This document shows, one piece after another, positions 36,561 through 48,531 of a stretch of 64,000 bases of DNA. The stretch is taken from NCBI GenBank assembly GCA_000002435.2, contig CM018792.1; one strand, 5' to 3'. The notes under the pieces were generated by a model. It saw only the letters and a program-made list of their open reading frames with translations, ran no database searches and had not been told where the DNA came from. The number at the start of each line of letters is the position of its first letter. Position 1 is the stretch's first letter. The translations under genes were made by a program, and so were the position numbers. This stretch comes from Giardia intestinalis (lineage: Eukaryota).

Positions 36561-37113
36561 GCAGTTATGGATCCTAGCTCTGCTGCAGAAGGTGCCTTAT
36601 GAGACGCAGCACAGCTACACCAAGCGGTATCGGGGCTGAACACTCCTTGGGACGGGCTCCTGGCGCATCTGAGAGACGCTCGTTGCTGTGCACTGCCTCT
36701 TGGGCTTTGAATGCACGTTGTGCAGAGCTGCAGGGGTCGCCCTTGCAGTTGTCGGTGGACCGTTGATGGGATCATTGAAAGCTCTGGACCGCTACTGGGC
36801 CGTGTTGTCCCAGTGCACGTGTGGCAGCTTTGGTTCGCACTGGATGGTCCGCAGAGATTGCAACGGAGCCACGAGGTGCACTAATATGACATACACATTG
36901 AGACAACCGCAGTTCTATTCGGCTCAATCCACCTCCTTCTGGCCCTGTGCCGAGATTGCAGATTGCAGAGTAGTGTTCGCGATAGACCCGGTGAGTGTTG
37001 ATTCCATCAGCGCCTGTGGTCAACGTGTGCCAGAAGGATCAATCAACTGCATCAATCAACGCGGATTGACTGATGTACCGCGAGTATGTTCCTACCAATC
37101 TATCAATCGGGCA

Positions 37114-39324
37114 ATGTTTGGCAGTTTTGTTCTCGCGGGGGTACTCGTCCAGATTGCATGGGCAGAAAAAGTAACAGAGCGCGCGGCTCAATGCGCAGAT
37201 AACACTAATTGCGCAGCAGAAGCATGCAACGTTCTGATCGGTGGTAAATTGTATTGCTCTCAATGTAACACAGGATTTGTTCCTATCAATGGACAATGTG
37301 CAGGCAAAGAAGATGCAAAAACCAAGTGTAAAGATACCGATGGAGGCGATACAGCTGATCAGACCTGTGGACAGTGCGCTGAGCAGACTTTCATGTACAA
37401 GGGCGGCTGTTACGAAGCAGCCCAGCAGCCCGGACAGACCATATGTCAGGCGGCAGAAAATGGAAAATGCACACAGGCTAAGGCTGGATACTTCGTGCCG
37501 CCGGGCGCAGACGCCTCTCACCAATCGGTCATACCGTGCGGAGACGAAGAGGAAATAACGGTTAAGAACGATAAAAAGTACAAGGGCGTAGTGCATTGTA
37601 CTCAGTGTAACGCTCCCGCAGAAGCAGCAGATGCTAACGCCAAGGCCGCCACATGTACTGCGTGCGGCGATAGCAAGATCGTCAAGACGGCCAAGGACCA
37701 AGCCACCTCCTGCGTGACAGAAAAAGAGTGCACGGATGCCCCAGGCTTCTTCGTTGATACGACGAGCGGTAAAAAATGCAGCAAGTGCGCTGAGACATGC
37801 AAGACCTGTAAGACCGAGGCTGCGAAGTGCACCTCCTGTAAGGACGACAAGCCGTACCTGAAGAAGGATGACGAGTCCACAACTGGCACGTGCGTTGACG
37901 CAAACGGCTGCCCGGCAACTCATTACGTTGATAAGGAAGCAAAGGAGTGCAACACCTGCGTTTCAGGAGGGACGGTGGACTGCACCACTTGTGAGAAAGG
38001 CGCCAACGGAGTGGTTTGTAAGACGTGTACGACTGGTACGAAGACCAAGTTTGGCCTTGGAAAGAAGTCATGCGTTGAGAACTGCCCCTCGAACTCCAGC
38101 GATGAAAAGACCCCTGGCACCTGTGAGTGCGTCGAGGGCTACGTTCCCGACGACGCGGGCACCGGGTGTACGAAGAAATCCGACCCCCAGTGCAACACCC
38201 CCGGCTGCAAGACGTGCAGTGATCCGAAGAAAGACAAGGAGGTGTGCACAGAATGCGAAGACCCCAAGGCCCTCACGCCCACGGGCCAGTGCATCGATAA
38301 CTGCGGAGATCTGGGAGGCTACTACGAGGGCACCAACGAGGGGGGCAAGAAGGCCTGCAAGAAGTGCGAGGTCGAGAACTGCCTCCTGTGCAATGGGCAG
38401 GGACAGTGCGAGACCTGCAAGGACGGGTACTACAAGAGCGGAGCCGCCTGTGCCAAGTGCGATACCTCGTGCAAGACGTGCGCGAACGGGAAGCCCAACG
38501 GGTGTACGAGCTGCGAGCCTAAGCAGGTCCTCAGCTACGAAGGGGAGGGCACGGGGACGTACAAACCAGAATGCAAGCCAGTGAGCGGCGGCAAGGATGG
38601 AACGTGCAAGAGCTGCGACCTGAGCATAGACGGGACAAGCTACTGTTCTGCCTGTAACGTGGGCACGGAGTATCCAGAGAACGGTGTGTGCGTCAAGAAG
38701 TCGGCCCGCACAGCCTCCTGCCAGGTCGAACCGAGCAATGGTGTGTGCGGGACATGTGCAAAGGGCTTCTTCCGCATGAACGGGGGCTGCTACGAAACGA
38801 CCAAACTCCCTGGAAAGAACGTCTGTGAGGAGGCAGCACCGACCGGCGATACCTGTCAGACTCCGGCCGACGGGTACAAACTGAATAACGGCGCGCTCAT
38901 CACTTGCTCGGCCGGATGTAAGACGTGCACCAGCCAGGACCAGTGCGACACGTGTAAGGCTGGATATGCTAAGACTGGCGGTAACACTAAGAAGTGCGTT
39001 CCCTGCGCCACTGGGTGCTCCGAGTGCAATGCGGACGACGCCACCAAGTGCACGGTGTGCGCTGCAGGGTACTACCTGTCCAAAGAAAAGTGCATAGCAT
39101 GCGACAAGAGCGACGGCGGATCCATCACCGGCGTCGCCAACTGCGCCAACTGCGCTCCCCCAACCAACAATAAAGGGCCTGTCCTCTGCTACCTCATACA
39201 GAACACCAACAGGAGCGGGCTTTCCACGGGGGCCATAGCGGGGATCTCCGTCGCTGTCATCGCTGTCGTGGGGGGCCTCGTGGGCTTCCTCTGCTGGTGG
39301 TTCATATGTAGAGGGAAGGCGTGA
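37114..39324 (+). CDS. vsp: variant-specific surface protein (VSP), intact: signal peptide + CXXC-rich ectodomain + TM + CRGKA
   Basis: The ATG at 37114 gives MFGSFVLAGVLVQIAWA, a signal peptide. Many CxxC and GGCY motifs follow. The C-terminus is GAIAGISVAVIAVVGGLVGFLCWWFICRGKA. Stop is TGA at 39322. The track ORF start at 36688 is a GTG read-through of non-coding DNA. Confidence 0.85.
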   Translation: MFGSFVLAGVLVQIAWAEKVTERAAQCADNTNCAAEACNVLIGGKLYCSQCNTGFVPINGQCAGKEDAKTKCKDTDGGDTADQTCGQCAEQTFMYKGGCYEAAQQPGQTICQAAENGKCTQAKAGYFVPPGADASHQSVIPCGDEEEITVKNDKKYKGVVHCTQCNAPAEAADANAKAATCTACGDSKIVKTAKDQATSCVTEKECTDAPGFFVDTTSGKKCSKCAETCKTCKTEAAKCTSCKDDKPYLKKDDESTTGTCVDANGCPATHYVDKEAKECNTCVSGGTVDCTTCEKGANGVVCKTCTTGTKTKFGLGKKSCVENCPSNSSDEKTPGTCECVEGYVPDDAGTGCTKKSDPQCNTPGCKTCSDPKKDKEVCTECEDPKALTPTGQCIDNCGDLGGYYEGTNEGGKKACKKCEVENCLLCNGQGQCETCKDGYYKSGAACAKCDTSCKTCANGKPNGCTSCEPKQVLSYEGEGTGTYKPECKPVSGGKDGTCKSCDLSIDGTSYCSACNVGTEYPENGVCVKKSARTASCQVEPSNGVCGTCAKGFFRMNGGCYETTKLPGKNVCEEAAPTGDTCQTPADGYKLNNGALITCSAGCKTCTSQDQCDTCKAGYAKTGGNTKKCVPCATGCSECNADDATKCTVCAAGYYLSKEKCIACDKSDGGSITGVANCANCAPPTNNKGPVLCYLIQNTNRSGLSTGAIAGISVAVIAVVGGLVGFLCWWFICRGKA

Positions 39325-39338
39325 CTTAGGTAGTGAAT
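39324..39338 (+). promoter_or_regulatory. VSP extended polyadenylation signal (ACTTAGGTAGTGAAT) overlapping stop codon
   Basis: Matches the Giardia VSP 3' consensus ACTYAGRTAGTRAAY. The same element recurs at 41157..41171, 42990..43004, 44889..44903, 46698..46712 and 48536..48550. Confidence 0.6.
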
Positions 39339-46698: not shown

Positions 46699-46851
46699 CT
46701 TGGGTAGTGAATGCTGTACAGTGGGTGATAATGGGTGATAGAAGGTGATAGAGGGTGATAGTGGAGTGAGATATGCACACAGGCTAGTGATGGACTGTGC
46801 ACTGCTTGTAAGGCAGCTAACCAGTACATATTCCAGAACAAGGCTACGACA

Positions 46852-48531
46852 GTGACCCCTGGTGGGGAGTGCATACTGTGCCATGATGCCACGGGAGCGA
46901 ATGAGAACAAGGGAGTGGCTAATTGCCTCAAGTGCACGGCACCAGCTAATAGTCCAGGGGCTGCCACGTGTACTGAGTGCATGTCTGGCTTCTCAGGAGA
47001 CTCGTGTGCTACTCAATGCGGAGGAGACTGTGCCGCCTGTGATAAGAGTAACCAAAATCAGTGCACCTCTTGTAAGACTGGGAAGTACCTGAAAGAGAAT
47101 CAATGTGTGGAAAAAAGTGCATGTAACAACAATCACTACCCCGATGACACTAGCATGACCTGCGTCGCCTGTAGCACCATACAAGATTGCACAGCATGCA
47201 CAATGGACCAGTCCACGGGGAAGCCAAAGTGCACTAACTGCGGTGCCAGTAAGATCCCCAGGACGACTCTCGACGGAACCTCGACCTGCGTGACAAAAGG
47301 GTATGATCAGTGTCAAGGCACAGATAAGGAGCTGTTCATGAAGGAGGACCAATCGGCGTGCTTATTATGCGGAGACAATACTGAGGATACATCTGAGTCC
47401 AATAAAAACCAGGGAACTCCTAATTGCAAGACCTGTACCAAGACAGCATCCACTAAACCGGTCTGTGAGACGTGCAAGGATGGCTTCTTCTTTAATACTG
47501 GTGATAAGACATGTACAAACAAGTGCGATGCCACCTGCAAGACGTGCTCTGCTGCTACAGATGCTAACCGATGCTTAACTTGTATGCCCGGATACTTCCC
47601 CATCGATAGTACAGATCAACAAGGGAAGAAGTGCGTCCCATGCGATAGTGTGGACGACAAGGGTCGCGAAGGGTGCAGTGTCTGCTCTAACAATGGTGGA
47701 TTCAAGTGTACTGAATGTAAGGTGAACTATAAGAAGCAGTCCAATGGAGATGCAGGGGATGACTATACATGTGTGAAGACTTGTGAAGACCCCACGGCTT
47801 GTGGTGGGACCTCTGGCGCCTGCGATGCTATAGTAATCGACAATGATGGAGTAGAGCATCATTACTGTTCTTATTGTGGAAATCAAGGAGATGTACCAAT
47901 CAATGGTATATGCACCAGCTCACTTGCAAGTAATACCTGCGCCGATGGTGTCTGCAAGTCTTGTGCTCAAGGGTACTTTATGTATATGGGAGGGTGCTAT
48001 GATGTGTCGAAGGCTCCTGGTAGTCACATGTGCAAGAAAGCAGATAACAATGGGATATGCACAGAGGCGGCAAGTAATAGGTACTTCGTAGTCCCTGGGG
48101 CACAGACCACTGATCAGTCTGTATTAGCCTGTGGCAACCCCCTAGGCACACTAGTAGGCACTCAAGGTACCGCTAAGGCATACGTGGGGGTGGATGGCTG
48201 CTCACAGTGCACAGCCCCAGCAGGTCTGTCTGAGGGTGGCATGACCCCCGCTGTCTGTACCTCCTGTGACAATAGTAAGAAGCCCAACAAGGATGGCAGC
48301 GGGTGTGTGCTGTGCTCTGACACCAACTGCAAGAGCTGTGTGATGGACGGTGTGTGTGGGGAGTGCAACAGTGGCTTCAGTCTAGACAATGGTAAGTGTG
48401 TGTCCTCTGGCGCCAACAGGAGCGGGCTCAGCACGGGCGCCATCGCGGGGATCTCCGTGGCTGTCATCGCTGTCGTGGGGGGCCTCGTGGGCTTCCTCTG
48501 CTGGTGGTTCGTGTGTAGAGGGAAGGCGTAG
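46852..48531 (+). pseudogene. vsp: VSP cassette without ATG or signal peptide; 559-aa product identical to the 41311..42990 cassette
   Basis: Protein identical to the cassette at 41311. The DNA differs only by synonymous changes in the first ~80 nt and the last ~20 nt, and the stop is TAG rather than TGA. It is the terminal unit of the array. The poly(A) signal ACTTAGGTAGTAAAT is at 48536..48550. Confidence 0.55.

Follow-up and report, generated by a model that had tools for sequence, protein, structure and literature searches.

A shared reading frame in a linear array of variant-specific surface protein units of Giardia intestinalis WB, probably inherited through copied junctions

Linear VSP arrays and the shared reading frame

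Linear arrays of genes for variant-specific surface proteins (VSPs) hold more than half of the vsp genes of Giardia intestinalis WB, and their members are placed head-to-tail with short spacers (Adam et al. 2010, BMC Genomics 11:424, PMC2996952). The spacers range from overlapping to 241 bp, with a mean of 60 bp. A long upstream region and an initiator element (Inr) mark the first member, whereas the Inr is absent from the downstream members, which were hypothesised to be recombination cassettes or discarded genes (PMC2996952). In Giardia muris, tandem pseudo-VSP copies without signal peptides form arrays that were reported as transcriptionally silent and proposed to be a gene-conversion reservoir (Xu et al. 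2020, PMC7641422), and pseudo-VSP (pVSP) classes were assigned among the reclassified cysteine-rich genes of WB (Rodriguez-Walker et al., 10.1101/2022.03.07.483299). In this study, one array was analysed on contig CM018792.1, within a stretch of 64,000 nucleotides that is called the window below. The six VSP units of this array share one reading frame, which was probably inherited from one or two founder junctions.

The array is the one listed as LA on chromosome 4, i.e., vsp92 (GL50803_137606, first, 852 aa), vsp93 (114065, 606 aa) and vsp94 (112009, 516 aa) (PMC2996952). As originally listed, six open reading frames (ORFs) with starts at 36688, 39337, 41311, 43060, 44902, and 46852 are present in the window. 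All are on one strand, with gaps of 12, 153, 69, 12, and 153 nt between each stop and the next ORF start. Every unit matched the Pfam VSP family PF03302 with 117-472 bits (cut-off 31.4 bits) and ends in ...GGLVGFLCWWF(I/V)CRGKA*, i.e., the transmembrane (TM) segment and cytoplasmic tail that are a hallmark of VSPs. The starts themselves did not all hold up. Those at 36688, 41311, 43060, and 46852 are GTG artefacts of a bacterial-code ORF finder, and the remaining two, ATG 39337 and ATG 44902, are inside the 3' untranslated region (UTR) of the preceding unit. One complete VSP and five 5'-truncated cassettes (pseudo-VSPs) make up this VSP linear array of Giardia WB. The array structure was already known, and the frame relation is a small new detail of this known structure. 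A scan for bacterial promoters and terminators found nothing above shuffles; these are bacterial models, irrelevant to a eukaryotic host.

The shared frame was confirmed by recomputing the stop positions. The six stops end at 39324, 41157, 42990, 44889, 46698, and 48531, each divisible by 3, and the stop-to-stop unit lengths are 1833, 1833, 1899, 1809, and 1833 nt. ORF picking was rejected as the source of the congruence, because the CRGKA stops fix the frame whatever start is chosen. The statement that all spacers are multiples of 3 in length also holds, but it is a mere restatement of the shared frame. A (GATAGT)3.7 repeat is present in the array and is read in frame as SDSDSD, as the original prediction described.

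By alignment, the five junctions fall into only two classes, and these are homologous to each other. Type A is found between units 1 and 2 (39325..39402, +) and, as a second copy, between units 4 and 5 (44890..44967, +). It is composed of 25 nt of VSP 3' UTR and a repeat, i.e., the conserved UTR CTTAGGTAGTGAATGCTGTACAGTG with the poly(A) signal AGTGAAT, followed by the (GATAGT)n / GTGATAGTGGTG 12-nt repeat, and its first copy contains the in-frame ATG 39337. Type B is found between units 2 and 3 (41158..41229, +), units 3 and 4 (42991..43062, +), and units 5 and 6 (46699..46770, +), and joins the same 25-nt UTR to four to five copies of a 10-nt repeat, AGTGGGTGAT. The 25 nt after the TGA, CTTRGGTAGTGAATGCTGTACAGTG, are the same at all five internal junctions, and an identical 21-mer is present at 5/5 of them. 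The alignment of the two types runs across both UTR and GT-rich repeat, with gaps of 2 and 55 nt (net 57 nt). An origin of the spacers as foreign DNA was also considered and rejected, since the spacers are made up of VSP 3' UTR and a short repeat rich in GT.

The junctions lie within larger recent copies. No difference is seen between the two type A junctions over -119 to +222 nt relative to the stop; past this stretch they diverge abruptly. In megablast, the 364-nt blocks 39206-39569 and 44771-45134, the second of which contains the second type A copy, showed 99.7% identity, and 40403-42988 and 45932-48529 showed 94%. Between units 3 and 6, which share 99.3% identity, the 15 differing positions fall in two patches, one of which matches unit 4. 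The last 119 nt of unit 1 are identical to the last 119 nt of unit 4.

Two figures of the original prediction had to be revised. It counted one to three stops per junction, whereas 3 in-frame stops are present at each type A junction and 7 at each type B junction (VSP stop included). It also gave the chance of the shared frame as 0.4%, assuming five independent junctions where only two copied and mutually homologous classes exist. With one or two independent frame events, the chance is therefore approximately 0.33-0.11 (1/3 to 1/9). In addition, the array was singled out post hoc, for being in frame.

It is probable that the frame was inherited from one or two founder junctions through block copying in a known VSP array. 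A cassette would have been joined to the preceding unit via the conserved VSP 3' UTR and a short GT-rich repeat, and the length of this founder junction would have happened to keep the frame. Blocks spanning the junction would then have spread by duplication, unequal crossing-over or gene conversion, and all five junctions would derive from one founder and at most one further length change. With bodies that differ only by in-frame indels, every unit would inherit the frame. Because the junction and the bodies are both 3n in length, the common frame is automatic. The shared frame is thus probably a by-product of common descent, not a selected property. The proposed expansion by homologous recombination between modules agrees with the near-identical blocks spanning the junctions, but gains no support from the frame statistics.

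The complete gene and the start-less cassettes

Unit 1 (37114..39324, +) is a complete VSP of 736 aa with a signal peptide, a CXXC-rich body, a TM segment and CRGKA. Its true start is ATG 37114, within the VSP initiator element CAATGTT that was located by motif scan (37112..37118, +). The product is identical to KAE8303950.1 (736 aa) and also corresponds to XP_001706652. The hydrophobic leader of unit 1, MFGSFVLAGVLVQIAWA, is the sole signal peptide among the six units, as judged from sequence and alignment. Within the array, PyAATGTT occurs only at 37112-37118, and none was found in 39325-48531. In the earlier table, vsp92 was recorded as Inr 'No', with the upstream ATG used (852 aa) (PMC2996952); CAATGTT sits at the ATG adopted for vsp92, i.e., unit 1, by the new annotation. 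Over the 64 kb, YAATGTT was found four times (12252, 16915, 37112, and 54813), against 19.3 +/- 4.6 in dinucleotide-preserving shuffles, which is a marked depletion. Judging from its alignment, unit 1 is orthologous to the only VSP that DH and P15 have at this locus and represents its native gene.

The cassettes, all on the + strand, are truncated at two points. In alignment with a complete relative, units 2 (39403..41157) and 5 (44968..46698) start at approximately residue 91, and units 3 (41230..42990), 4 (43063..44889), and 6 (46771..48531) at approximately residue 108. Unit 2 is thus without approximately its first 90 codons and unit 3 without approximately its first 107. None of units 2-6 retains a signal peptide, the first cysteine module or an Inr. 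The first ATG of unit 3 gives a 516-aa product that matches vsp94. Unit 4 has an additional in-frame module of 66 nt close to its 3' end. Unit 6 is a recent copy of unit 3 and its stop is TAG, not TGA. The poly(A) signal AGTRAAY follows every unit (6/6), as TAGTGAAT beginning 7 nt past the stop after units 1-5 and as TAGTAAAT beginning 12 nt past the stop after unit 6. The cassette ends, approximately 280 nt at the 5' side and 135 nt at the 3' side, are homogenised, with more than 90% identity.

The cassette bodies are deeply divergent, with 67-85% nucleotide identity, a dS of approximately 1, a dN/dS of approximately 0.3, and 14-21 indel blocks in each pairwise comparison, every one of them in frame. 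By these measures the bodies evolved as coding sequence, because dN/dS is approximately 0.3 at a dS of approximately 1 and the indels are only in frame. Each of units 2-6 has 589-611 stop-free codons when measured to the nearest upstream in-frame stop. The nearest complete VSP found for unit 2 is only 60-68% identical in amino acids, which means that no known expressed gene was freshly copied to give the cassettes. It is reasonable to consider that they could serve as a silent coding reservoir for segmental gene conversion into expressible VSPs, as proposed by Adam 2010 and Xu 2020. Hints of such donation are the mosaic identity blocks among the units and the terminal 119 nt of unit 1, which equal those of unit 4, unlike DH.

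Another explanation would be that units 2 and 5, and possibly others, are real genes without signal peptides, with translation beginning at the ATG of the 3' UTR before them, and that the frame is needed for this ATG. The coding constraint on the bodies (dN/dS approximately 0.3) would agree with it, and ORFs of 606 and 598 aa open at the UTR ATGs of units 2 and 5. The former (39337-41157) was annotated in the old WB annotation as XP_001706653.1 ('VSP', vsp93), and the latter begins at ATG 44902. However, the UTR ATGs have no Inr, and stops follow the same ATG in units 3, 4, and 6. In the new WB annotation, accessions pass directly from KAE8303950 (unit 1) to KAE8303951, the endonuclease/exonuclease/phosphatase-family (EEP) protein, with no protein, that of unit 2 included, between them. 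ORFs lacking the signal peptide are classed as pseudogenes in the literature (10.1101/2022.03.07.483299), and the array pseudo-VSPs of G. muris were reported as untranscribed (PMC7641422). Translation of the cassettes from UTR ATGs is thus considered quite unlikely.

On the minus strand, ORFs of 100-560 aa cover the array across 37039-48467, and one of 558 aa (38068-39744, -) spans the junction of units 1 and 2. These antisense ORFs are probably a by-product of VSP codon bias and not genes. Neither the junction 21-mer nor any relative of unit 2 was detected when metagenomes were scanned.

Other arrays, other assemblies and the remaining explanations

Frame preservation was surveyed at six head-to-tail VSP junctions on three assemblage B contigs (L012, L013, and L015). 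Two were in frame, i.e., the junction after 1788 in L012 and a recurrent 'type C' junction in L013. The junctions after 8367 and 9740 in L012, the junction after 4248 in L015, where the ORFs overlap, and the type C junction of L015, which is 1 nt longer than the L013 copy, were out of frame. The result, 2/6, equals the chance expectation of 1/3, and the preservation expected of other arrays was not found in this survey. Among further candidates, P0022, P0043, and P0080 are solitary VSPs, and P0092 is in a head-to-head pair with no head-to-tail junction. In P0026 (650 aa, a length matching vsp60), the type A spacer is read in the +1 frame, and this gene is probably out of frame with its preceding unit. 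'Overlapping' array members were also recorded by Adam et al. 2010 (PMC2996952); because they overlap, they must be out of frame.

The type C junction (GS_B assembly; L013 1673-1790, L015 2978-3070) has its own structure. A VSP is cut within the TM segment (...GAIAGISVA) and continues as KSSSALCC*, and approximately 60 nt past this end a VSP with a signal peptide is found. At least 15 proteins of the homologue list end in KSS.ALCC-like tails. In assemblage B, at least 20 'partial' VSPs begin at the same point, VNDPAGVSIDSLCRP. Partial VSPs of this type at L011 2989-5796 (+) and L015 ~1-1421 (-) are head-to-head with a VSP-like ORF approximately 340 nt away, and at these two loci no VSP 3' end precedes the partial VSP. 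Just upstream of the VNDPAGVSIDSLCRP starts lies GGGGGTGAGTGAAC, which may be a decayed VSP end.

The frame continuity could instead be held by selection, with neighbours joined via small deletions, stop read-through or slippage into chimeric or tandem VSPs. If it were truly preserved, it would point to programmed antigen-cassette fusion in Giardia, in which antigenic variation is thought to proceed without DNA rearrangement. Six units in one frame and a net multiple of 3 between types A and B agree with selection, as does the in-frame variation of the 6-nt repeat of type A, i.e., MLYSDSDSDS in this array and MLYSDSDS in P0023 and P0027. Against this stand the 3-7 in-frame stops at each junction, and also the 10-nt repeat of type B, which is not codon-compatible, so that one slippage event shifts the frame. 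The fusion of cassettes by a small spacer deletion, as originally predicted, is not supported, and would need an in-frame loss of 15 nt or more (type A) or 66 nt or more (type B). The product of such a fusion would retain an internal TM segment and CRGKA tail, and not one of 120 VSP homologues had a CRGKA or TM motif in such an internal position. The other arrays described above, with 2/6 junctions in frame, P0026 in the +1 frame and overlapping genes, also argue against selection. Moreover, homologous recombination between cassettes gives in-frame chimeras at any genomic offset, and frame congruence therefore adds nothing to it. Selection for frame continuity is accordingly regarded as very improbable.

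A milder form would be weak selection on frame register in assemblage A, where the UTR ATG and the 3n junctions would permit two-module or re-initiated VSPs. This is still harder to credit and is held to be extremely unlikely. If it were true, antigens would be diversified not by epigenetic switching alone but also at the sequence level, through short deletions, (GATAGT)n slippage or occasional read-through.

The array is placed between two genes that are identical to WB proteins. The NEK kinase gene (33111-34328) corresponds to Giardia intestinalis WB KAE8303948 and the EEP gene (48719-49813) to KAE8303951, both on the 2,761,001-bp WB record. Between them, a small minus-strand gene and the six VSP units are found. 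The native 3' UTR of the locus (48532..48550, +), ATGTACTTAGGTAGTAAAT, with the poly(A) signal AGTAAAT, is common to DH and P15, unlike the internal junction UTRs. The end of unit 6, i.e., TAG followed by ATGTACTTAGGTAGTAAATGCG, also differs from the internal units, and unit 6 bears the native TAG and UTR as in DH.

In the DH (assemblage AII) and P15 (assemblage E) assemblies, a single VSP is present between the same flanking genes. The five start-less cassettes (39325-48531, 9,207 bp) are absent from both the DH (L008 7516-9849) and the P15 (L007 7632-9851) assemblies. The VSP of DH and P15 aligns with unit 1, after which the alignment resumes in the final ~118 nt of unit 6 and in the DNA downstream of it. 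In the alignment of 3' ends, WB unit 1 is DH-like up to the conserved terminal region and is then identical to unit 4. The cassette block is flanked on both sides by the ~120-nt common VSP 3' end, an arrangement that is the signature of homologous recombination or gene conversion in that segment. We infer that homologous recombination in this ~120-nt conserved end brought the five-cassette block (9,207 bp) into the locus in the WB lineage.

The array, or its number of units, might also be an artefact of assembly, in which case the repeated frame would come from mis-joined copies. The flank of the EEP gene is fragmented in other assemblies, where short-read contigs end ~30-220 nt upstream of the gene, near the stop of the last unit, and the 99.3% identity of units 3 and 6 would also fit. 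However, the earlier WB assembly analysed by Adam et al. (PMC2996952) already had the vsp92-94 array, with 852, 606, and 516 aa, matching units 1-3. Units 2, 4, and 5, at 67-85% identity, cannot be collapsed copies, and units 3 and 6 have different stop codons and UTRs as well as clustered substitutions. An assembly artefact is therefore judged exceedingly improbable.

Five independent in-frame insertions (the null of p = 0.4%), which would imply an unknown frame-aware mechanism, have only the raw frame congruence in their favour and are practically discounted, being refuted by the junction alignments, i.e., the common 21-mer, the identical or near-identical flanks within each class and the homology of the classes.

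Several points weigh against inheritance from founder junctions by block copying. The start-less cassettes keep a long coding capacity, which suggests some constraint on it that this explanation leaves unexplained; by the same sequence comparison, such a constraint would fit the published idea of arrays as a maintained reservoir, not decaying junk. The A/B gaps of 55 and 2 nt sum to a multiple of 3 and are readable as compensation, although the gap stretch is full of stops and only loosely alignable, which limits this reading. At least three other WB array members (P0023, P0027, and P0131) start at the same in-frame UTR ATG, MLYSDSDS..., which makes type A junctions that keep the frame a common feature of WB. 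The arrays used for comparison belong to another assemblage and to an older draft with short contigs, in which indel errors could shift frames. Finally, DH and P15 could show a single VSP because an array was collapsed during assembly, through the common 3' end of ~140 nt.

Comparison with known systems

The array is the same object as the linear arrays of Adam et al. (PMC2996952). Their definition, i.e., at least two head-to-tail units with short spacers and an Inr in the first only, describes it. Six units are found in the chromosome-level sequence, whereas three were listed there. Frame relations between units are not discussed in that paper, save for the overlapping members, and no mention of them was found in PMC2996952, PMC7641422 or 10.1101/2022.03.07.483299. 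The G. muris arrays are mostly telomere-adjacent and end in GCRGK, whereas the present array is chromosome-internal and placed behind a complete VSP.

Three results are of modest value. One is the description of the junction element, i.e., a conserved 3' UTR, a GT-rich repeat and a fixed truncation point. Another is the five-cassette block that is present in WB and not in the DH and P15 assemblies and is bounded by the VSP 3' end. The third is the run of ~590-610 stop-free codons that the start-less cassettes have kept at a dN/dS of approximately 0.3.

VSP switching in Giardia is regarded as epigenetic or post-transcriptional, and we know of no demonstration of gene conversion from arrays into an expressed VSP. 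In the vls system of Borrelia burgdorferi, promoterless and 5'-truncated cassettes are donors for segmental gene conversion and form a nearly continuous reading frame. Looser parallels are the VSG pseudogene arrays of Trypanosoma brucei, msp2 of Anaplasma and pilS of Neisseria. In such systems the donor copies are placed beside an expression copy or away from it. In contrast to vls, each cassette of the present array is closed by a stop, a 3' UTR and a poly(A) signal of its own, and the junctions have 3 or 7 in-frame stops and form no continuous ORF. Beyond the array description of PMC2996952, the present analysis sorts the junctions into classes, compares the locus with that of DH and P15, and gives dN/dS values for the cassettes.

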